Below, in pieces: positions 43,959-64,000 of a stretch of DNA of 64,000 nt. The notes below the pieces were generated by a model. That model was not told where the DNA came from. It searched no databases and saw only the letters and a program-made list of their open reading frames with translations. Every line of letters begins with the position of its first letter. Position 1 is the stretch's first letter. The position numbers and the translations under genes were made by a program. Source of the stretch: Eledone cirrhosa (taxonomy: Eukaryota); NCBI GenBank assembly GCA_964016885.1, contig OZ024752.1, positions 20,522,001 to 20,586,000 of the forward strand, read 5' to 3'.

Positions 43959-43962
43959 TTAA

Positions 43963-44362
43963 CCCTTTAGCATTTACATTATTTCATATTGAGGGCGGTG
44001 GATTGGTAGTATCGGTAGAGAGTCGGGCGCCATGCTTTACGGTCTCAGTTCAAATCCCGCCAAGGTTCACTTTGCCTTTCATCCTTACGGGGTCGATAAA
44101 ATAAATTACCAGTAATGTACTGGGTAATTGCTGGCCTTGTGCCTAAAGTAGAAACAATTATTTCATATTTACTATTATATTTACACAGTAAAGGCTTTAC
44201 CTCACATAATTATCTCACATAAAATTGAATCTACAAGATTTCGATGTTATTTATTTTGAGAACAATACCTTAATGTAGGTGTGAGCAGCCAGTTACAGCC
44301 AGTTTGAACGGAAAGAAGTGAGAGCGTTCTGGCCGGATATTGCCAGTTTGAATGCTAAAGGG
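43963..44362. mobile_element. piggyBac-like non-autonomous element (MITE), copy 1, carrying a SINE insertion
   Basis: TTAA at 43959-43962 and 44363-44366; TIRs CCCTTTAGCATT / AATGCTAAAGGG. After removing the SINE, the body aligns with the copy at 51718-51934. Confidence 0.9.
43991..44156 (+). mobile_element. tRNA-derived SINE (Meta-domain-like) inserted in MITE copy 1
   Basis: 13-bp target-site duplication ATTATTTCATATT at 43978-43990 and 44157-44169. A-box/B-box-like head (GTTCAAATCCC). Central GCCTTTCATCCTTACGGGGTCGATAAAAT motif resembles the MetaSINE core. Confidence 0.85.
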
Positions 44363-44499
44363 TTAATCTTATCAGTTACAAAACAAGCTCATAAGTGCTG
44401 GTGCACACCATGCATTCTGTAGTTCTGCTGAGGACATGGCTACCTCTCTTGTGTTGTTCTAAAGTCTGTCTTAAGCCAGAAGGTTTGTTGGGCTAGTGA

Positions 44500-45021: not shown

Positions 45022-45023
<2 letters not shown>

Positions 45024-45164
45024 GAAGTGGTTACACAACAGTTAGTTCACCATACCGAGAACAATTGTTTCACCTTAGCGGATCCTCAGACTTTAGACTT
45101 TAGACCGCTAAGGTGAAACAATTGTTCTCGGTATGGTGAACTAACTGTTGTGTAACCATTTCTA
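45022..45164. repeat. 60-bp near-perfect inverted repeat (hairpin) with 23-bp spacer
   Basis: Arms 45022-45081 and 45105-45164 are reverse complements with a single mismatch. Confidence 0.95.
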
Positions 45165-50840: not shown

Positions 50841-50958
50841 ATGGGAGCCACTGAATTGTTTGAGGTACGACTGTCTGACCAGCAAGAATGTTATTATTCT
50901 GGTGATACAATACGAGGTGATGTTGTTATTCACTTGGCTTATCCATTAGATGTGTCTG
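50841..50958 (+). CDS. Arrestin-domain-containing protein (alpha-arrestin/ARRDC-like), first coding exon
   Basis: MGATELFEVRLSDQQECYYSGDTIRGDVVIHLAYPLDVS matches the Arrestin_N start pattern (YYxGxxxxGxV). In-frame upstream stop at 50835; donor G|GTAAGT, phase 1. Confidence 0.88.
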
Positions 50959-51265
50959 GTAAGTCATCATTTAAAGAAATTTCCCATTAGATGTGTCCAC
51001 ACTGTAAAGTGGTTGTCTTGGTGTCACGATAACTCCCCCCCCCCCTCCAGTCCACACTATAAAGTGATTGTGTTGGTGTCATGATAAAAAATGCCCAGTC
51101 CATACTGTAAAGTGGTCATGTTGGTAACACAATATATATATATATAATTTTATGTATATAAAATTGATAAATGAAACAAAACAAACACAAGAATGCAAAA
51201 ATACACAATTATATATATACATACACACTCTCTCACACACATTATACATATACACAAACAAATAA

Positions 51266-51479: not shown

Positions 51480-52025
51480 GGTTAAGAAGTTTGCTTCTCA
51501 ATCATTAGGTCCTGGGCTTGATCCCACCGTGTGTCATCTTGAGCAAATGTTATTTCCTATATCCTCTGGTCGACTCAAGCTTTGTGAGTGAAATTGGGTA
51601 GACGGAAACTGTTTGGAAGCCCGTCAGAGGTACTGCACCTGTAATTCAAAGGGCAAGACAGCCTTGTCGCATACTGTGTCACTGTGTCATGCCAAATCTC
51701 CATCTTAATTATGTTAACCCTTTACCATTTACATCTATATTTACTATTGTATTTTCACGGTAAACACTTTACCTTACATAATTATCTCACATAACATCGA
51801 ATCTATGAGATTTTGATATTATTTATTTTGAAAAAAATACCTTAATGTCGGTATGCGTGGCCAGTTATGACCAGTTTGAACAGAAAAAGGTGAGAGAATT
51901 CTGACCAGATATGGCCAATTTAAATGGTAAAGGGTTAAGTGTACATGTTTGTGGAATGCTCAGCCACTTGCACTGTAATTTAATGAGGAGGTTGTCCCAT
52001 TGATCAAACAACTGCAACACTCGTT
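51480..52025 (+). mobile_element. tRNA-derived CORE-like SINE interrupted by MITE copy 2
   Basis: Head GGTTAAGAAGTTTGCTTC...TTGATCCC, then TCTTGAGCAAATGT and GACGGAAACTG. The sequence appears to resume after the TTAA at 51935-51938. Boundaries approximate. Confidence 0.6.
51718..51934. mobile_element. piggyBac-like MITE, copy 2 (217 bp, uninterrupted)
   Basis: TTAA at 51714-51717 and 51935-51938; perfect 14-bp TIRs CCCTTTACCATTTA / TAAATGGTAAAGGG; homologous to 43963-44362. Confidence 0.92.
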
Positions 52026-52121: not shown

Positions 52122-52250
52122 GTATCACAATAACATTTAAAGGGTATGGAAAAGCTAAATGGTCTTCCTCAGACGCTAACAATGATGATATTGTGTATGC
52201 ATCATCCAGTACATATATTGACCAAAAAGTGACTTTATATGGAACTCCTG
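52122..52250 (+). CDS. Arrestin-domain-containing protein, second coding exon
   Basis: Acceptor TTTCTTTGCAG and donor G|GTAAGT; 129 bp, phase 1-1. Encodes (G)ITITFKGYGKAKWSSSDANNDDIVYASSSTYIDQKVTLYGTP (arrestin FxGxxxxxW and Y-x-D pattern). Confidence 0.9.
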
Positions 52251-52316
52251 GTAAGTTATGATTATATTACTTTTATAAGGTAGTGGGGACTTGCTGAGTA
52301 CATAATGTGAATGTGT

Positions 52317-53213
52317 GCACACACATACACACAGACAGACACACATACAGACACACACAGACTGATAGACAGACAGACATATACACAGACAGACAAGCAG
52401 ACAGACATACACACAGATAGGGAGACAGACATACACACACACAGACTGACAGACAGACAGACAAGCAAACACACCGATAGGGAGACACATACAAACACAC
52501 AAACAGACAGACAAGCAGACAGGCATACACAGATAGAGAGACAGACATACACACAGAGATAGAGAGACATACATACACACACAGATAGAGAGACAGACAT
52601 ACACACAGAGATAGAGAGACAGACATACACAGAGATAGAGAGACAGACATACACAGAGATAGAGAGACAGACATACACAGAGATAGAGAGACAGACATAC
52701 ACAGAGATAGAGAGACATACATACACACAGATAGAGAGACAGACACACACAGAGATAGAGAGGCATACATACACAGAGATAGAGAGACAGACATACACAG
52801 AGATAGAGAGACATACATACATAGAGATAGAGAGACAGACATACACAGAGATAGAGAGACATACATACATAGAGATAGAGAGACAGACATACACAGAGAT
52901 AGAGAGACAGACATACACACAGAGATAGAGAGACAGACATACACACAGATAGAGAGACAGACACACACAGAGATAGAGAGACATACATACACAGAGATAG
53001 AGAGACAGACATACACAGATAGAGAGACAGACACACACAGAGATAGGGAGACAGACATACACAGAGATAGAGAGACAGACATACACAGAGATAGAGAGAC
53101 ATACATACATAGAGATAGAGAGACAGACATACACAGAGATAGAGAGACAGACATACACAGAGATAGAGAGACAGACATACATAGAGATAGAGAGACAGAC
53201 ATACACAGAGATA
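52317..53213. repeat. CA/GA compound microsatellite grading into a 24-bp minisatellite (ACACAGAGATAGAGAGACAGACAT)n, tract 1
   Basis: Degenerate (CA)/(CAGA) repeats on the left; regular 24-mers towards the retroelement junction. Confidence 0.95.
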
Positions 53214-54830
53214 TGTTTCTTTTATTTGCCACTAGGGCATCAAAAGTGGGACAAGTACAAAGGGGGGAGTTTACACAAAAAGGCGTCCTCAATAAGCAGG
53301 AGGCAATAACTAAATATAAAAATAAAATAAGATATAACAAAAAATAAAATTTAGAGAGGAGGCGCCTTGGGGGGTCGCACACACCCCCGAAAAAAGTGTG
53401 CAACCCTTTTCCTCAGGAGCACAGAGAGGGGGTGCTCCCTCGTTCCTTCCTCTTTTCCACCTACAGGCTTATGTAAAGAGAAGGCCCATTCACACGGGCC
53501 ATTCTCGCCACTTTCACCCACCTTTCATAAAAACGACTGGGGTGCAGCACCTCTCTCTCCATCCTGATCCTTCTTCCGAAATGATATCGGAAGAAACGGA
53601 CCAGTTGTTGGCCAGAGAGAAAGGTGCCTGACCTCAGTCCTTTCAGACGCGTCCACCATACAACCTCTTTCGCCATGGCTATTACGCACAGAAACACCGC
53701 CTCTGCTTCATCTTGGAAGGGATCTTTTTCGTCTTGCGACGAAAGAGGTTCGTCTTCCTTGTTGGGTGGGAGGGGTATGTTTTCTGGTAGTGTTTGCGGT
53801 GTGCGTGTTTTTGTATTTGTTTTGGGTGGGGAGGGATTGGGTGGGACAGTATTCTGTGTTATTTTTTCACGTGTTTGTTGTTGTTGTGGTGGTGGTGGTG
53901 GGGTTGTTGGTTTTTGTTGTTGTTGTGGTTGTTTTTGTTGTTGTAGTTGGGGTGGTGTTGGTGTTGGTAGCAGTGTTTTTTTCTGTGTGAGCTGGGGACA
54001 GGCAGCCCTCAGGTGACCTCTATTGCCACAGAGGTAACAGGAGGGACGCCTACCCTCCACAATAATGTTGAGGTGGGTACGGTCATCCAGCATGACGCGC
54101 TCAGGGATTTGGGCGATGCGTTCTGGCCTTATTTGGGTCAGAACTTCGAGGCTCGTTCCACTGAACGCGTCGCCGGATGCCTTCCCTATTGAGATGAGGT
54201 TGTCCTCATCTAAATTGAGGAAACCGGTTAGTAACCACCAGTAGTTTATGTTTGGGGTGATGGTGGTTATCCATATCCTCTGGGTTTTTTTACCCATGTA
54301 GGTGGGGAAGAAGGTGTAGTGTGTGGACCGAATTGGCGACACAGAGTATTTTTTTGCCGCCAATTCGTCTTTCATCAATATGGATAAACTCCCTTAGAGT
54401 TTATCCTTTTGTATGAAAGTGATGTCTCTCATCGCGTCTTTCAAGACTAACTGAGTTTCCGCTTGAGATGGTTGCGCTGGTTTCTTTGTTTTATTTAAAA
54501 TTGTTCGGAATACGACAGTTCGTAATTCCGTCTGTCTTTTTAGCTCCGGAGGTGAATGTATAGAAAACGAACCGTTTTCGCCAAAAGACACATATTTCTT
54601 GGCTTTTTCCAGCATTTCTTTTGCTTTTGAAATATCTTCCAGCACATACGCGACTGATAATTTAGCCGTTTGTGCAAAAGATATTTTGTTTTCGTTTTGG
54701 ATATTAGTATTGTTTTGTTTCTCGTCGTTTGAGTTGTTTTCATCTTTGTTGTTGTTGTTGTCTTTCTCGTTTCGTGTGTGGATACTTGTGACGTTTGTGT
54801 TGTTGTTGTTTTTGTTGTCTTTATTGTTGC

Positions 54831-54861
<31 letters not shown>

Positions 54862-55257
54862 GTTTTCAAATTCTTGTGTAGTTGTGGCTACATCTAGTGG
54901 TCGGTCAACAGGTGAAGACAATTCTTCCTCTCTCTGACCTCTGCCTTTGGCATCTGCTGCTGTGACAGTGGCAGGGGGAAGCTGTGAGTATGACTTCCCC
55001 TTTCCTTCTTTGATTGATGGTGAAGATGCTTCAGCCATTTTTCTCAAAATAGGGTTTTTCGAAGTTTTTCGAAAGATAAAATGTTCACAATACTATTTCG
55101 CCCAAAGGCGCAGAATATTTTGAGAGACCGACCAGATCAAAATTTGACCTGGCAGTCCCTCTACAAAATGGTACAAAAATGAAAGTTTACAGTTTACAAT
55201 TTCCGTATGAATTTAAACAAAAACTTACCGAGCGAGCTCAGCACATGTGTCCATCGT
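53214..55257 (-). mobile_element. Non-autonomous ORF1-only Tx1/L1-type retroelement (element B, ~2.0 kb)
   Basis: ~220-bp 5' UTR, gag-like ORF with CCHC knuckle, no endonuclease or RT. 53214-53721 is nearly identical to 55893-56417 of the adjacent LINE. Confidence 0.88.
53461..55038 (-). pseudogene. Gag-like ORF1 (zinc knuckle) fused in frame to the last ~83 codons of ORF2; one in-frame TAA at 54394-54396
   Basis: Tracked ORFs 54394-55047 and 53461-54378 share one frame (..QKDKL*GSLSILMKDE..). ATG at 55038. Motif VEGRRPSCYLCGNRGHLRAAC; Asn-rich and Pro/Gln-rich tracts. The C-terminus DEAEAVFLC...PSLYISL is identical to that of ORF2. Confidence 0.8.
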
Positions 55258-55892
55258 AGAGATAGATAGATTGATAGACAGACATACACAGAGATAGAGA
55301 GACAGACATACACAGAGATAGAGAAACATACATACACAGAGATAGAGAGACAGACATACACAGAGATAGAGAGACAGACATACACAGAGATAGAGAAACA
55401 TACATACACAGAGATAGAGAGACAGACATACACAGAGATAGAGAGACAGACATACACAGAGATAGAGAGACAGACATACACACAGAGATAGAGAAACATA
55501 CATACACAGAGATAGAGAGACAGACATACACAGAGATAGAGAGACAGACATACACAGAGATAGAGAAACATACATACACAGAGATAGAGAGACAGAGATA
55601 GAGAGACAGACATACACACAGAGATAGGGAGACAGGCATACACAGAGATAGAGAGACGGACATACACAGAGATAGAGAGACATACATACATAGAGATAGA
55701 GAGACAGACATACACAGAGATAGAGAGACAGACATACACACAGAGATAGGGAGACAGGCATACACAGAGATAGAGAGACAGACATACACAGAGATAGGGA
55801 GACAGACATACACAGAGATAGGGAGACAGGCATACACAGAGATAGAGAGACATACATACACAGAGATAGAGAGACAGACATACACAGAGATA
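55258..55892. repeat. 24-bp minisatellite, tract 2 (between the two retroelements)
   Basis: Same ACACAGAGATAGAGAGACAGACAT unit. Confidence 0.95.
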
Positions 55893-58800
55893 AGTTTCTT
55901 TTATTTGCCACTAGGGCATCAAAAGTGGGACAAGTACAAAGGGGGGAGTTTACACAAAAAGGCGTCCTCAATAAGGAGGAGGCAATAACAAAATATAAAA
56001 ATAAAATAAGATATAACAAAAAATAAAATTTTTAACAAAATCCTCAATAGAGAGGAGGCGCCTTGGGGGGTCGCACACACCCCCGAAAAAAGTGTGCAAC
56101 CCTTTTCCTCAGGAGCACAGAGAGGGGGTGCTCCCTCGTTCCTTCCTCTTTTCCACCTACAGGCTTATGTAAAGAGAAGGCCCATTCACACGGGCCATTC
56201 TCGCCACTTTCACCCACCTTTCATAAAAACGACTGGGGTGCAGCACCTCTCTCTCCATCCTGATCCTTCTTCCGAAATGATATCGGAAGAAACGGACCAG
56301 TTGTTGGCCAGAGAGAAAGGTGCCTGACCTCAGTCCTTTCAGACGCGTCCACCATACAACCTCTTTCGCCATGGCTATTACGCACAGAAACACCGCCTCT
56401 GCTTCATCTTTGAAGGGGGGAGGCGGCTTGATCATTACAATAGACTCGGTGGTCAACCGGATCGGTCCCACCCTTGACAGCAGTTGTTCGACATAGCCCC
56501 ACAGATCGGCTACGCCCGAGCAGTGTACCAATGCGTGTGCAACGGTTTCCTCGTCGCACACGCATCTGGGACAGATCTTTTTGGCGGGGTCCCTACCCGG
56601 GCGCCCGTGTCTGTAGAGCCTTTCTCGAACGGGTAAAGCCCCTCGGTAGCACTGCCAGGCCAGGGACTTCTGGAAGTTGTCCATAGGTCCCGGGCTGAAT
56701 GTCCTACCGAACAGGCTGGCCAGTTCGTCCTCCTCCATGTCTAGGGCTTCTCCGAGGGCGTCGTCGCACCTGCTGCGTACCAGCCCTCTATAGAATGTTG
56801 CGGTGGAGTCTCCACTGATAACCGGATCCGCCTGCCAGAGGGCGGTGAGCGCCTGGGCACACTCAGTGTGCCAGGCGCCCAGTTTTCTCGGTCTTTGCTT
56901 GACCCAGGATTGCAGCTCGGTGAGTGAGACGAGTCTGGGAAAGGTTCGTCTCACAAACGAGGCCCACACCGGTTGTCCGGTGAGGAATACGTAGAGGTGC
57001 CGTAGCCTTAATGCGTGTTTACGCATCATTAGCCACGGCATCCCCAGCCCTCCTTTCGAAGGGTGTTGACAGCAGATGGATCTCCTCACCATAGGAGCCC
57101 GCCCCTTCCAAAGGAATTGGAAGAGCGCGCGCTCCATCTTGGTGAGGGTTTCCCTTGGGCAGGGCACTACGGTCAGGCGGTAGTAGATGACGGACGCTAT
57201 ATAAGTGTTCGCCACCTCCGCCCGACCTTTCAGGGATAGTTTGCAACTGGCCCACTTCTGGGTCAGTGCAAACACCCTGTTCGTAACCTCCGCCCAGTTT
57301 TTCTCCACCTGGAGGTCCGGTCCGAACCAGACCCCGAGCAACTTCACCGGGCCCTCCGTCCAGCGTCCGACGACGCCATCGGAGGGCATCGGTCTGCCCC
57401 TCCACGTGCCGAGTTGCAAACCGATCGACTTGTCCCGGTTCAGCTTAGCCCCTGTGAACTTTTCGTACTCCTCCAGTAAGGTGCCGACCGCCTCAATTTC
57501 GGAGGCCGTCGACACCATTACTGTCACATCATCGGCGTAGGCTGACACCGCTTTCCGCAATCCCGGTTCCAAAGGGATGCCCTGCAACAACTCCAACTTC
57601 CGCAGTAGTGGCTCGAGAGTCAACACATACAGAAGGGAGGAGAGAGGGCACCCTTGTCGGATGGACCGCGCGATTTTGAACGGCTCCGAGAGGTAGCCGT
57701 TCACCTTGACCCTAGAGCAGATGCGGCTGCTGTGCATAGCAGTGATCCAGCCCCTGAAAACGGGTCCGAAGCCTGCCGCCGCTAGCACCGCATCCAGGTA
57801 ACCATGGTCGACCCTATCGAACGCCTTAGATTGATCCAAGTTGATCAGAGCCCCACCAAAGCCGGGTTCGTTCCCAACCCTCTCTATGATGTATCGCATG
57901 AGGTGGAGGTTGTCATGGATGGACCTGGACGGGATAGCGCATGTCTGCGCATCTCCCACCAGGTTGCCCACGACAAGCGCCAACCTCTTTGCTAGCACCT
58001 TGGCCAAAATCTGTAACTCTGTATTTAGCAGAGTTATGGGCCTGAAGTTACTTATTTCGTCCCCCTTGTTCTCGTCCTTCCTCACTAGCGTGACTACGCC
58101 CTTGGTCACAGTACAGGGAATTCTCCCGTTCTGTTGCCAGTTGCAGTAGACCGCCTCGAGGAGATCGGGGAACAAGTCCGGCATAGCTAGATATAATTCG
58201 TAAGGAAGACCATCGAGACCCGGGGATTTGCGTTTGCCGCATTGGCCCAGCACGTCCTCTATCTCAGCGGCCGAAATCGGCTCCTCGCAAGACTTCGCCT
58301 CCCTGTCCGAGAGGCGCGGCAGGCCGTCGAGGTATGGACCGAAGTCCACGTTTCCAACCGGCTCCCCGCCCCTCCCGAACAGTCGGGCAAAGTGCCTTTG
58401 AAAGGCCTCACACATCTGCTTAGGCTCAAGAATCGCCCGTCCATCCAGGTCTCGCAAAGACCGGATGGTGGATTTAGTTCCACTGTTGGCCTCTGTCACG
58501 CGGGCCCAGCTAACAGCTTTGGCCCCCTCGTTCCCTAGAGCACGTATTTTACTTCGGACAACGCAGCCTTCGTGCTTCGCGTCGAAAAACTGGCTCAAAG
58601 CCGTTCTCGACGCTAGCACTCTGGCCACATCGCCGCTTCTAATTGCCTCTTCTACTCTATCTATTAGCTCCCTTTCCTTCCTATTCCTATCCGCAGCTAG
58701 AACCTTACTAAATTCAATCGAGACTACTCTAATCTCTCTCTTTAGAGATACCCACCACCTGCTGTTGACGATCGCTCCAGTCAACCGTTCCTTAACTAAC

Positions 58801-59708
58801 GTACTAATCCGATTCCTGTAGGCTCTACTTGCCGGCAAGGACAAGTTGAGCTTCCAGTAACCGGGGCCCTGTCTATGCGTTCTATCAAGGTTGACCATGC
58901 AGGTCACCAACTTGTGGTCTGAATAGCCAACCATGAGCATTTCTGGACAACTTAAAAAGTCCCTGTCCTTATTTCTAACTAAAAATCTATCTAGGTACGA
59001 TCTAGATGATCCGCTGCGATTTGACCAAGACCAGGTTGGCACCGTCGGAAAATCTAGTCGAAATCTATCGGCCACGTCAAATCGGCCGAGTAACCCCTTG
59101 AGGCTGTTGCACCCCTCTCTATCGGGACATGCCCCTGCATAGTCCCAACGTGCATCCAGGATACCATTCCAATCCCCCACTAAAAGCAGGGAACGGGACG
59201 TCCCTAGAAAAGACTCCAGACGCTGGAAAAAGTCGGGCCGCTCTGTCCCAAAAGGGGCATATGCGGCTATCAGCCTAAAGGCTCTACCTTCACCACTGCC
59301 AAGGTCCAGCACCACCAGTCGACCCCCTGGGTCCAAGTGAACTATCTGTGTTGCAAGGCCCATATGTTTTTGCAGCAGAACGACAACCCCACCCCCACCT
59401 CCGGGCTGACAGAGAGATGCGTGCATCTCAAAGTCGTCAAAGGTGGGGGCTAGCTGTCGCATGCTGCTGATCCGGGCCTCGCAGATAACCATCACATTTA
59501 TAGATTGTGACCTGAGGTCATTTAGAAGCATTGCTTGCTTCCAAGACGAGCCCAGGCCACGCGCATTTAGACACCCTACTCTTAGCACAGCCATGTTGGT
59601 GGTAAAGAGAAAAGGCACTTACCTCTCTGCGTCCCGGGAAACGGGCCGCTCAATTTCCATGCTGGTTGGGGATGGGTTGTTGGGTGGGGTGGTGGTTTGT
59701 GGAAGTGT
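55893..59708 (-). mobile_element. Tx1/L1-clade LINE (element A), 5'-truncated near the end of ORF1, intact ORF2
   Basis: ORF2 is complete. The 3' UTR ends AATAAAAGAAACT and joins the minisatellite directly. The 5' ~90 bp reads LPQTTTPPNNPSPTSMEIERPVSRDAER*, a probable ORF1 C-terminus. Confidence 0.93.
56157..59594 (-). CDS. LINE ORF2: APE endonuclease + reverse transcriptase + C-terminal zinc finger (1145 aa from ATG 59594)
   Basis: APE motifs LNARGL, GDWN, SYLDRF and SDH. RT motifs KSPGLDG, FRPITLLN, LDQSKAFDRV, RQGCPLS and YADD. C-terminal CPRC...HALVHC. No stops or frameshifts. Confidence 0.97.
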   Translation of the reverse strand: MAVLRVGCLNARGLGSSWKQAMLLNDLRSQSINVMVICEARISSMRQLAPTFDDFEMHASLCQPGGGGGVVVLLQKHMGLATQIVHLDPGGRLVVLDLGSGEGRAFRLIAAYAPFGTERPDFFQRLESFLGTSRSLLLVGDWNGILDARWDYAGACPDREGCNSLKGLLGRFDVADRFRLDFPTVPTWSWSNRSGSSRSYLDRFLVRNKDRDFLSCPEMLMVGYSDHKLVTCMVNLDRTHRQGPGYWKLNLSLPASRAYRNRISTLVKERLTGAIVNSRWWVSLKREIRVVSIEFSKVLAADRNRKERELIDRVEEAIRSGDVARVLASRTALSQFFDAKHEGCVVRSKIRALGNEGAKAVSWARVTEANSGTKSTIRSLRDLDGRAILEPKQMCEAFQRHFARLFGRGGEPVGNVDFGPYLDGLPRLSDREAKSCEEPISAAEIEDVLGQCGKRKSPGLDGLPYELYLAMPDLFPDLLEAVYCNWQQNGRIPCTVTKGVVTLVRKDENKGDEISNFRPITLLNTELQILAKVLAKRLALVVGNLVGDAQTCAIPSRSIHDNLHLMRYIIERVGNEPGFGGALINLDQSKAFDRVDHGYLDAVLAAAGFGPVFRGWITAMHSSRICSRVKVNGYLSEPFKIARSIRQGCPLSSLLYVLTLEPLLRKLELLQGIPLEPGLRKAVSAYADDVTVMVSTASEIEAVGTLLEEYEKFTGAKLNRDKSIGLQLGTWRGRPMPSDGVVGRWTEGPVKLLGVWFGPDLQVEKNWAEVTNRVFALTQKWASCKLSLKGRAEVANTYIASVIYYRLTVVPCPRETLTKMERALFQFLWKGRAPMVRRSICCQHPSKGGLGMPWLMMRKHALRLRHLYVFLTGQPVWASFVRRTFPRLVSLTELQSWVKQRPRKLGAWHTECAQALTALWQADPVISGDSTATFYRGLVRSRCDDALGEALDMEEDELASLFGRTFSPGPMDNFQKSLAWQCYRGALPVRERLYRHGRPGRDPAKKICPRCVCDEETVAHALVHCSGVADLWGYVEQLLSRVGPIRLTTESIVMIKPPPPFKDEAEAVFLCVIAMAKEVVWWTRLKGLRSGTFLSGQQLVRFFRYHFGRRIRMEREVLHPSRFYERWVKVARMARVNGPSLYISL

Positions 59709-60078
59709 ACAGACATACACAGAGATAGAGAGACAGACTTACACAGAGAGATAGAGAGACAGACTTACACAGAGATAGGGAGACAGACATACACAGAGAT
59801 AGAGAAACATACATACACAGAGATAGAGAAACATACATACACAGAGATAGAGAGACAGACATACACAGAGATAGAGAGACAGACTTACACAGAGATAGAG
59901 AGACAGACTTACACAGAGATAGAGAGACAGACATACACAGAGATAGAGAGACAGACATACACAGAGATAGAGAAACATACATACACAGAGATAGAGAGAC
60001 AGACTTACACAGAGATACAGACAAACTGACAGACAATCACATAGACACACCGAGACTGTCACAGACAGACACAGAGAT
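59709..60078. repeat. 24-bp minisatellite, tract 3
   Basis: Same unit with a local GACTTAC variant; decays into CAGA repeats on the right. Confidence 0.93.
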
Positions 60079-60181
60079 ATATTTAAAGTTCATCTGAGAA
60101 GAGAAGAGCACAGTTTGATACTCTAATGATTCTGCCAATAATCAATAACCAATAATAATAATAGAATGTTCTCTTCTTCAG

Positions 60182-60399
60182 ATGAACTTCAACTTCACCG
60201 TATGGATTCTGGAGAATACAGCTACCCGTTCTTATTTATTATCCCGCCCATAGCACCATCATCATGTCCGGGTGACAGAGGCAAAGTAAAATATAAGTTT
60301 ATTGCCATCATACAGCGTTTCTGGAAGTCTCAGATTGAAGAAGAGAAAGTTGTGAAAATCTTCAAACCTCTTGACCTGAACAATGAACCAGGTCCCTCA
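60182..60399 (+). CDS. Arrestin-domain-containing protein, third coding exon (gene continues beyond the window)
   Basis: Acceptor TTCTCTTCTTCAG, donor GTAAGT at 60400; phase 1 in, phase 0 out. GEYSYPFLFIIPPIAPSSCPGDRGKVKYKFIAIIQRFWK...KPLDLN matches the Arrestin_N end pattern (GxxxYPFxFxLP..PSS..G..GxVxY..PLDLN). Confidence 0.92.
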
Positions 60400-60408
60400 G
60401 TAAGTAAA

Positions 60409-60840
60409 CACCACCACAACACCACTACCACTAACACCACCACTACCACCACCACTACCACCACCACTAACACCACTACCACCACCACTAACACCACTAC
60501 CACTAACACCACCACTACCACCACCACTAACACCACTATCACCACTAACACCACTACCACCACCACTAACACCACTATCACCACTAACACCACTACCACC
60601 ACCACTAACACCACTAACACCACCACTAACACCACCACTAACACCACTACCACCACCACTAACACAACTACCACCACCAATAACACAACTACCACCACCA
60701 CTAACACAACTACCACCACCACTAACACAACTACCACCACCACTAACACAACTACCACCACCACTAACACCACTACCACCACCACTAACACCACTACCAC
60801 CACCACTAACACCACTACCACCACCACCACCACTAACACC
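60409..60840. repeat. (ACC/ACT/AAC)n compound trinucleotide repeat, intronic
   Basis: Recurring ACCACCACTAAC units immediately after the exon donor. Confidence 0.95.
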
Positions 60841-60845
60841 TATAA

Positions 60846-63800
60846 ATGTTATGGTGTAGGTTGTGGTTGTGTGATAGTGGTGGTAATGTTATGGTGTAGG
60901 TTGTGGTTGTATGATGGTGTTGGTTTTGTTAGTGGTGGTAATGTTATGGTGTAGGTTGTGGTTGTGTGATGGTGTTGGTTGTGTTAGTGGTGGTGGTAGT
61001 GGTGTAGGTTGTGTGATGGTGGTGGTAATGTTATGGTGTAGGTTGTGGTTGTGTTAGTGGTGTAGGTTGTGTGATGGTGGTGGTAATGTTATGGTGTAGG
61101 TTGTGGTTGTGTTAGTGGTGCTAATGTTATGGTGTAGGTTGTGGTTGTGTTAGTGGTGGTAATGTTATGGTGTAGGTTGTGGTTGTATTAGTGGTGGTAA
61201 TGTTATGGTGTAGGTTGTGGTTGTGTTAGTGGTGGTAATGTTATGGTGTAGGTTGTGGTTGTGTTAGTGGTGGTAATGTTATGGTGTAGGTTGTGGTTGT
61301 GTTAGTGGTGGTAATGTTATGGTGTAGGTTGTGGTTGTGTTAGTGGTGGTAATGTTATGGTGTAGGTTGTGGTTGTGTGTTAGTGGTGGTAATGTTATGG
61401 TGTAGGTTGTGGTTGTGTTAGTGGTGGTAATGTTATGGTGTAGGTTGTGGTTGTGTGATGGTGTAGGTTGTGTTAGTGGTGGTAATGTTATGGTGTAGGT
61501 TGTGGTTGTGTTAGTGGTGTTGGTTGTGTTAGTGGTGGTAATGTTATGGTGTAGGTTGTGGTTGTGTGATGGTGTTGGTTGTGTTAGTGGTGGTGGTAGT
61601 GGTGTAGGTTGTGTGATGGTGGTGGTAATGTTATGGTGTAGGTTGTGGTTGTGTTAGTGGTGGTAATGTTATGGTGTAGGTTGTGGTTGTGTTAGTGGTG
61701 GTAATGTTATGGTGTTGGTTGTGGTTGTGTGATGGTGTTGGTTGTGTTAGTGGTGGTGGTAGTGGTGTAGGTTGTGTGATGGTGGTGGTAATGTTATGGT
61801 GTAGGTTGTGGTTGTGTTAGTGGTGGTAATGTTATGGTGTAGGTTGTGGTTGTGTGATGGTGTTGGTTGTGTTAGTGGTGGTGGTAGTGGTGTAGGTTGT
61901 GTGATGGTGGTGGTAATGTTATGGTGTAGGTTGTGGTTGTGTTAGTGGTGGTAATGTTATGGTGTAGGTTGTGGTTGTATTAGTGGTGGTAATGTTATGG
62001 TGTAGGTTGTGGTTGTGTGATAGTGGTGGTAATGTTATGGTGTAGGTTGTGGTTGTGTGTTAGTGGTGGTAATGTTATGGTGTAGGTTGTGGTTGTGTTA
62101 GTGGTGGTAATGTTATGGTGTAGGTTGTGGTTGTGTTAGTGGTGGTAATGTTATGGTGTAGGTTGTGGTTGTGTTAGTGGTGGTAATGTTATGGTGTAGG
62201 TTGTGGTTGTGTGATGGTGTAGGTTGTGGTTGTGTTAGTGGTGGTAATGTTATGGTGTAGGTTGTGGTTGTGTGATGGTGTTGGTTGTGTTAGTGGTGGT
62301 AATGTTATGGTGTAGGTTGTGGTTGTGTTAGTGGTGGTAATGTTATGGTGTAGGTTGTGGTTGTGTGATAGTGGTGGTAATGTTATGGTGTAGGTTGTGG
62401 TTGTGTGTTAGTGGTGGTAATGTTATGGTGTAGGTTGTGGTTGTGTTAGTGGTGGTAATGTTATGGTGTAGGTTGTGGTTGTGTGATAGTGGTGGTAATG
62501 TTATGGTGTATGTTGTGGTTGTGTGATGGTGTTGGTTTTGTTAGTGGTGGTAATGTTATGGTGTAGGTTGTGGTTGTGTTAGTGGTGGTAATGTTATGGT
62601 GTAGGTTGTGGTTGTGTGATAGTGGTGGTAATGTTATGGTGTAGGTTGTGGTTGTGTGTTAGTGGTGGTAATGTTATGGTGTAGGTTGTGGTTGTGTTAG
62701 TGGTGGTAATGTTATGGTGTAGGTTGTGGTTGTGTTAGTGGTGCTAATGTTATGGTGTAGGTTGTGGTTGTGTGATAGTGGTGGTAATGTTATGGTGTAT
62801 GTTGTGGTTGTGTGATGGTGTTGGTTTTGTTAGTGGTGGTAATGTTATGGTGTAGGTTGTGGTTGTGTTAGTGGTGGTAATGTTATGGTGTAGGTTGTGG
62901 TTGTGTGATAGTGGTGGTAATGTTATGGTGTAGGTTGTGGTTGTGTGTTAGTGGTGGTAATGTTATGGTGTAGGTTGTGGTTGTGTTAGTGGTGGTAATG
63001 TTATGGTGTAGGTTGTGGTTGTGTTAGTGGTGCTAATGTTATGGTGTAGGTTGTGGTTGTGTTAGTGGTGGTAATGTTATGGTGTAGGTTGTGGTTGTGT
63101 TAGTGGTGGTAATGTTATGGTGTAGGTTGTGGTTGTGTTAGTGGTGGTAATGTTATGGTGTAGGTTGTGGTTGTGTGATAGTGGTGGTAATGTTATGGTG
63201 TAGGTTGTGGTTGTGTTAGTGGTGCTAATGTTATGGTGTAGGTTGTGGTTGTGTTAGTGGTGGTAATGTTATGGTGTAGGTTGTGGTTTTGTTAGTGGTG
63301 GTAATGTTATGGTGTAGGTTGTGGTTGTGTGAGGGTGTTGGTTGTGTTAGTGGTGGTAATGTTATGGTGTAGGTTGTGGTTGTGTGATGGTGTTGGTAAT
63401 GTTATGGTGTAGGTTGTGGTTGTGTTAGTGGTGGTAATGTTATGGTGTTGGTTGTGGTTGTGTTAGTGGTGGTAATGTTATGGTGTTGGTTGTGGTTGTG
63501 TTAGTGGTGGTAATGTTATGGTGTTGGTTGTGGTTGTGTGATGGTGTAGGTTGTGTTAGTGGTGGTAATGTTATGGTGTAGGTTGTGGTTGTGTTAGTGG
63601 TGGTAATGTTATGGTGTTGGTTGTGGTTGTGTGATGGTGTAGGTTGTGTTAGTGGTGGTAATGTTATGGTGTAGGTTGTGGTTGTGTTAGTGGTGGTAAT
63701 GTTATGGTGTAGGTTGTGGTTGTGTGATGGTGTTGGTTGTGTTAGTGGTGGTAATGTTATGGTGTAGGTTGTGGTTGTGTTAGTGGTGCTAATGTTATGG

Positions 63801-64000
63801 TGTAGGTTGTGGTTGTGTGATGGTGTAGGTTGTGGTTGTGTTAGTGGTGGTAATGTTATGGTGTAGGTTGTGGTTGTGTGATAGTGGTGGTAATGTTATG
63901 GTGTAGGTTGTGGTTGTGTGTTAGTGGTGGTAATGTTATGGTGTAGGTTGTGGTTGTGTTAGTGGTGGTAATGTTATGGTGTAGGTTGTGGTTGTGTTAG
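60846..64000. repeat. 38-bp G/T-rich minisatellite (GTGGTGGTAATGTTATGGTGTAGGTTGTGGTTGTGTTA)n, runs off the right edge
   Basis: Period 38 (e.g. TGTTATGG at 61201 and 61239) with length variants; almost no C on the + strand. Confidence 0.97.

Follow-up and report, generated by a model that had tools for sequence, protein, structure and literature searches.

Two copies of an L1-superfamily retrotransposon in an intronic 24-bp minisatellite of Eledone cirrhosa: probable targeted insertion

Two retrotransposon copies joined to one repeat

We analyzed a stretch of 64,000 nucleotides from the Eledone cirrhosa genome (contig OZ024752.1, positions 20,522,001 to 20,586,000; hereafter the window, whose own numbering is used throughout) in which two copies of a long interspersed nuclear element (LINE), here elements 1 and 2, lie among arrays of a 24-bp repeat. 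The setting is a single intron (52251-60181) of an arrestin-domain gene, to which both elements are antisense. These copies are probably independent, targeted insertions of an L1-superfamily LINE into one intronic array. As the initial annotation of the window had stated, both 3' ends join the 24-mer at one phase and in one orientation, a canonical unit abutting the element at 53213/53214 and 55892/55893, and poly(A) is absent from both junctions. By simple arithmetic, two insertions in an array would agree in phase and orientation with a chance of 1/48. The repeat is present not only on the 3' side but also on the 5' side of both elements, and the first element base at the 3' junction differs between the copies (T or A). 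The anatomy of the copies, their phase, the absence of poly(A), the repeat flanking each copy on either side and the map of variant units can all be read directly from the window (Table 1).

Judged by its ORF2 sequence (ORF, open reading frame), the element is an L1-superfamily retrotransposon lacking long terminal repeats, with an APE endonuclease, a reverse transcriptase (RT) and a CCHC knuckle. Pfam matches were RVT_1 (5e-26) and Exo_endo_phos (7e-7), with no RNase H family among them; zf-RVT (3e-5) fell under the cut-off, but the CCHC motif is present, as are residues E39, Y112, D141, N143, D202, D226 and H227 and the YADD motif. The best PDB match was human L1 ORF2p (1e-47, residues 7-856), and R2 matched in the RT only (6e-19); as the matches included no CR1, RTE or Jockey protein, the comparison covers L1 and R2. 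Membership of Tx1 is likely. Tx1 elements are recognized by an ORF1 with an RRM-like domain and a CCHC knuckle (PMC5203782; here and below, papers are cited for the passages concerned). In ORF1 of element 1 a zf-CCHC match had an E value of 0.0025, under the Pfam cut-off, and Pfam found no RRM; its Atlas neighbours were zf-CCHC/RRM proteins at 0.90-0.92 and RBD_ZCCHC3 at 0.88, and the top Atlas cluster is commonest in Mollusca. A quick RT tree (45 of 47 rows kept, P0150 and P0157 being dropped for length; midpoint root; no named Tx1 references) placed the query on the same side as a fish element whose ORF1 is of the ZCCHC3 type and separated it from the L1 elements of fungi and algae (SH-like approximate likelihood-ratio support, 85).

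With up to three mismatches allowed, the 24-mer has 63 non-overlapping matches, all on the + strand and within 52300-60085, and none in the rest of the window. Decay of the repeat is confined to the outer edges (52317-52535 and 60018-60079), again in agreement with the initial annotation. The arrays are mosaics of variant units in which alternate bases are A at 337/339, 290/298 and 139/145 positions; with nearly every second base A, the unit is thus a compound GA/CA/TA microsatellite. Cutting the arrays at GATA gave pieces of 22-26 nt in 64 of 65 cases, so each period has a single GATA, and a short motif would be enough to set the phase. An endonuclease that reads the whole 24-mer, as had been suggested, is therefore unneeded, and we reject it as a necessary reading; the other part of that suggestion, targeting of a pre-existing repeat, is supported by array C and by the apparent independence of the copies. 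Located upstream of element 2, past its truncated 5' end, array C is the tail of neither copy, since the window contains no further ORF2 match. The repeat likely predates the insertions.

Possible marks of target-primed reverse transcription are the 5' truncation of element 2 and target-site duplication (TSD)-like matches of 21 bp (element 1) and 19 bp (element 2) at the 5' junctions, although inside a tandem repeat TSD lengths are defined only modulo 24, which leaves these matches ambiguous. The 5' junctions are near-identical in phase, differing by 2 nt. The two copies look like independent insertions. Their 5' ends differ, and their last ~155 bp are separated by three substitutions and a 17-bp indel, the next ~363 bp being identical. 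Identical flank bases beside the two 3' junctions number only 31, and of the unit pairs compared in order outward from the junctions 1/12 match, against 13% expected at random. Local tandem duplication, which the initial annotation had named as fatal to its reading, is disfavoured in its recent simple form, because 5' ends, junction base and unit order all differ; an older variant is taken up below. The differing junction base also suggests that the junction formed de novo at least two times in one phase; endonuclease preference would then retain a role.

Age and abundance were gauged from a contig overlay comprising all contigs of 4 of the 24 listed runs; figures for the closest pieces refer to the 32 listed, from a list with 30,580 more. 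Between element 2 and the nine closest pieces among those listed, 7 of 3253 bases differ (~0.2%), the other 23 being far more diverged. With near-identical sequence elsewhere at ~0.2%, element 2 is young. The overlay of run X1 comprises 26,715 contigs with depth declining toward the 5' end, a profile that an abundant family of mostly truncated copies would give; faster 5' divergence would look alike. Eight of the 26,715 contigs extend past one end of the stretch, the side being unspecified, and none does in the other three runs, and no loose ends at 55893 are among the 24 overlay rows shown (1888 more rows exist). Runs X6 and X8 contain a small number of contigs at low depth, some of them nearly identical to element 2; these runs may show trace host-species DNA in other samples. 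Metagenome, viral and prokaryote collections, which are not expected to hold this animal, gave no ORF2 relatives and 0 matches to a 23-nt 3'-end pattern.

Table 1. Features of the invaded intron and its borders, in window coordinates.
Feature	Position	Strand	Remark
Host exon upstream of the invaded intron	52123..52250	+	AG/GT ends; open frame with 50841-50959 and 60182-60400
Decayed left edge of array A	52317..52535	+	
13-bp word, repeated at 55272-55284	52363..52375	+	Candidate distant TSD of element 1 (import model)
Array A: 28 units on the 3' side of element 1	52536..53213	+	
Element 1: 5' untranslated region (UTR), ORF1 joined in frame with the final 86 codons of ORF2, and 3' UTR	53214..55257	-	Internally deleted copy
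ORF1 of element 1, 441 codons to breakpoint, CCHC knuckle, in-frame stop 54394-54396	53716..55038	-	
18 extra GATA-like bases, 5' junction of element 1	55258..55275	+	Element 5' end or junction filler
Array B left (B-left), 21-bp TSD-like start and 12 units, 5' side of element 1, marker A5	55276..55586	+	
Irregular 14-nt unit at the seam where the two variant types of array B meet	55587..55600	+	
Array B right (B-right), 12 units, 3' side of element 2	55601..55892	+	
Element 2: 5'-truncated 114 nt upstream of ORF2, 264-nt 3' UTR ending AATAAA and 7 nt	55893..59708	-	
Intact ORF2, 1145 aa: APE endonuclease, RT (YADD), C-terminal CCHC	56157..59594	-	
Array C, 19-bp TSD-like start and 12 units, marker A5	59709..60017	+	Upstream of element 2, past its truncated 5' end
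Decayed right edge of array C	60018..60079	+	
Host exon downstream of the intron (Arrestin_N)	60182..60400	+	PF00339, E 3e-15; open frame with upstream exons

Variant units and a possible import of repeat

The variant units are distributed according to the side of the element on which they stand. Among T9 units, marker A5 is found in 7/7 on the 5' sides (B-left and C) and in 0/9 on the 3' sides (A and B-right); arrays A and B-right have four variant types in common, all other pairs one each. The same double switch of A5 arose from 30 of 2016 random cut pairs. That variant units are alike on both 3' sides, and that the 5' sides have a marker in common, is what is new here. A single array split twice would show variants continuing across the insertions, so the observed discontinuity argues against simple splitting. 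As far as the unit sequences go, the map fits 3'-side units arriving with the elements; unequal crossover also fits.

A fuller version of our reading, in which targeted insertion is combined with read-through RNA that imports repeat units, is plausible but tentative. The APE domain would prefer a short motif in alternating-A (GA/CA/TA) repeats. Transcripts would pass the terminal AATAAA into the downstream repeat, and the read-through RNA would pair in register with the nicked + strand, in the manner of R1Bm and R2, priming synthesis without poly(A); donor units between the nick and the element 3' end would then be copied in. Such pairing would explain the common phase, the missing poly(A) and the imported units together. 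The earlier suggestion that the element carries the repeat as its tail may hold in this form. A 13-bp word at the far left of array A recurs at the start of array B, and its first 12 nt have only these two occurrences in the window; it is a candidate TSD enclosing all of array A, the match being reached in 94 of 5000 shuffles in a post hoc test. The irregular 14-nt unit at the seam of array B would likewise fit import.

Several points weigh against targeted insertion with import. The locus offers only two copies, selected for looking alike, and the RT tree leaves Tx1 membership unproven. The family looks very abundant in X1, and strict specificity must accommodate 26,715 contigs. A junction base inherited from one donor should match but differs, and AATAAA is retained at the element end. 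The pattern alpha-element-beta, seen twice, is also expected from unequal crossover; blocks separated by elements turn over separately; the variant tests were post hoc; and because units are not independent, Fisher values overstate the variant signal. Finally, marker T12 occurs in 5/12 units of array C and 0/12 of B-left, and its restriction to C weakens the view that B-left and C were one original array.

Competing explanations

The alternative that survives best, though we regard it as unlikely, is endonuclease targeting pure and simple: the + strand would be nicked after the single GATA of the unit, leaving a TSD of 19-21 bp and adding no repeat, and the variant blocks would reflect later turnover or unequal crossover between alleles each with its own insertion. 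The clean TSD-like matches of 19 and 21 bp agree with this, as does the precedent of Kibi and Koshi. A differing junction base is expected if each junction was made anew, and the variants private to one block (T12 in array C, C13 in array A and G10 in B-right) show separate turnover. Against this stand the discontinuity of variants at both insertion points, although B-left and C share A5, the youth of element 2, which leaves little time for turnover, and the need to treat the seam unit and the 13-bp word as coincidences.

At the other extreme, the family might both target and disperse its own landing site, with read-through transcripts carrying 300-840 bp of the 24-bp minisatellite away from a donor locus and priming wherever they pair with a similar array. 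RNA-DNA pairing, not the endonuclease, would then set the phase, and through such homology-guided retrotransposition the minisatellite family would spread and lengthen genome-wide. We consider this quite unlikely.

Improbable, too, is a single ancestral full-length insertion that was duplicated by unequal crossover or by a false haplotype join, after which one copy lost its interior and the other its 5' end. Phase would then be inherited and carry no information on targeting. Such a history would account for the alpha-element-beta order occurring twice at the locus with an odd unit at the seam, for the identity of the copies over ~363 bp and for the complementarity of their ORF1 and ORF2 parts. 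It requires, however, two large deletions and full reshuffling of both flanks (1/12 units match), as well as four differences near the 3' end while ORF2 is intact and ~0.2% from near-identical sequence elsewhere. Moreover, 5' truncation is the usual outcome of insertion, and X1 depth drops toward the 5' end.

It is very improbable that specificity is absent altogether and that an abundant LINE entered a tolerated array twice, or persisted there, with phase due to chance or microhomology priming. The family does appear abundant, the locus was selected post hoc, and Waldo-A/B illustrate passive accumulation near repeats (PMC3812793); the equal phase and orientation (1/48), the lack of poly(A) in both copies and the absence of another ORF2 match in the window tell against it. 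Least credible of all, and rejected, is the initial annotation's self-synthesised tail, in which repeated copying by the RT of a 24-nt template at the end of the RNA builds arrays that become landing pads: poly(A) is absent, long arrays stand on both 3' sides and L2, CR1 and Rex LINEs are known for slippage tails and microsatellite seeding (PMC3747384, PMC6050309), but those tails have units of 3-5 nt, array C belongs to neither copy, and the 3'-side arrays are heterogeneous with shared variants (17/28 units of A and 9/12 of B-right non-canonical, their 24-nt units 3-5% substituted, against ~0.2% for the element), which is not what fresh copying of one template would give.

Relation to known elements

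Targeted insertion into a tandem repeat, our preferred reading, has precedents. Many Tx1 families prefer targets such as (TC)n, (TTC)n, (TTCC)n, (TTTC)n, transposons or satellites (PMC4494074, PMC3812793), satellite-targeting families already appearing in the Fig. 3 legend of PMC4494074. In that paper a family is called target-specific when >20% of its copies are flanked by one sequence type; here both copies in the window (2/2) are flanked by the 24-bp repeat. As with Kibi in (TC)n, Koshi in (TTC)n and crocodilian Tx1 elements in (TTCC)n/(TTTC)n, an L1/Tx1-type APE-RT LINE sits in a simple tandem repeat in a fixed orientation, and a TC-containing motif follows the element strand here. For the related SINEU-3, repeated insertions into one target site have been reported (PMC4494074, PMC3812793). 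Unlike the pure (TC)n and (TTC)n targets of Kibi and Koshi, the target here is a 24-bp compound alternating-A unit and the host an invertebrate; the likeness lies in the type of target and is drawn from two copies at one locus. Waldo/Mino and Dong belong to the R1 and R4 clades, whereas the ORF2 here is L1-like. They also insert in microsatellite-like repeats, including alternating-A ones (ACAY and AC for Waldo/Mino, TAA for Dong; PMC3812793).

For the proposed import, the nearest models are R2Ol, in which annealing of read-through RNA to the target aids insertion (PMC6530143), and R1Bm, which depends on downstream target sequence and displays 3' transduction (work cited in PMC7265360). In both, as in our proposal, RNA that includes target sequence from downstream pairs with the nicked target, giving a precise 3' junction; they are, however, R1- and R2-clade elements of 28S ribosomal DNA characterized by experiment, while the step suggested here is deduced from variant units and would import hundreds of bases. 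Read-through past a weak poly(A) signal also carries flanking DNA in L1 3' transduction (PMC7265360), but L1 transductions end in a downstream poly(A), and none is present at the outer end of array A or where the two parts of array B meet. In CR1-L3 and Rex of squamates (PMC6050309) and in UnaL2 (PMC3747384) a 3' repeat replaces poly(A), as here. A slippage tail of that kind is a homogeneous repeat of short units on the 3' side only; the repeat here has a 24-bp unit, is heterogeneous and lies on both sides.

In Octopus vulgaris, 13 L1-Tx1 families have been active recently, with 421 insertions (PMC13282606, Table 1). Searches of open-access text yielded no paper on a cephalopod Tx1 element with a minisatellite target; Repbase, outside this search, may already include the family. 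The elements probably represent a new member among the Tx1-like LINEs that target repeats, with a putative specificity read from two copies. If it holds family-wide, this would add an invertebrate (probably cephalopod) case and a longer compound target to that group, and the intact ORF2 would offer an assayable endonuclease. Were import true as well, it would provide a mechanism for the growth and spread of compound alternating-A minisatellites, and variant-unit mapping could trace donor loci. At present this is a single locus showing a known type of behaviour, and the possible import of units is the aspect worth pursuing.

Other features of the elements and the locus

Within the fused segment of element 1 (53461-55038), the point where ORF1 joins ORF2 is marked by a 6-bp match plus one mismatch (53715-53721), and the internal deletion could be a template-switch product or define a non-autonomous subfamily. 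A homolog, P0163, is colinear with ORF1 of element 1 at 28% identity across the in-frame stop; because it has a sense residue there, the stop is probably a nonsense mutation. The stop is located at the tip of a 23-bp hairpin (54369-54419; z -6.1, 0/200 shuffles). The last stretch of the 3' UTR has no significant fold (z -1.6), and the 114-nt remnant upstream of ORF2 in element 2 finds no convincing counterpart in element 1 ORF1, the best being a low-complexity stretch of 12 bp.

At the end of the invaded intron, an inverted repeat (60083-60192), with one arm in intron sequence and the other at the acceptor of the host exon at 60182, could mask this 3' splice site; its arms are 15 nt long (93%), or longer by eye with one gap. 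The next intron (60407-64000) contains more minisatellites, 21/42 bp and ACC-rich, then 38/76 bp and GGT-rich, the two parts being apparently in opposite orientation.

Positions 1-43957 of the window are occupied by a 44-bp satellite of ~1000 copies, which stops at a TTAA-flanked element (43960-44366) with ends that we take to be piggyBac-like. A second copy of this element stands at 51716-51938 (84% over 202 bp). By eye the satellite unit resembles the subterminal sequence of the element, which suggests that the satellite derives from a miniature inverted-repeat transposable element (MITE). Between microsatellites, a near-perfect palindrome of 144 bp (90%) at 45022-45164 is possibly a MITE. 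The segment 45229-46390 appears by eye to be a fragment of another LINE, presumably RTE-like, with CAT repeats at its end adjoining (TA)n.

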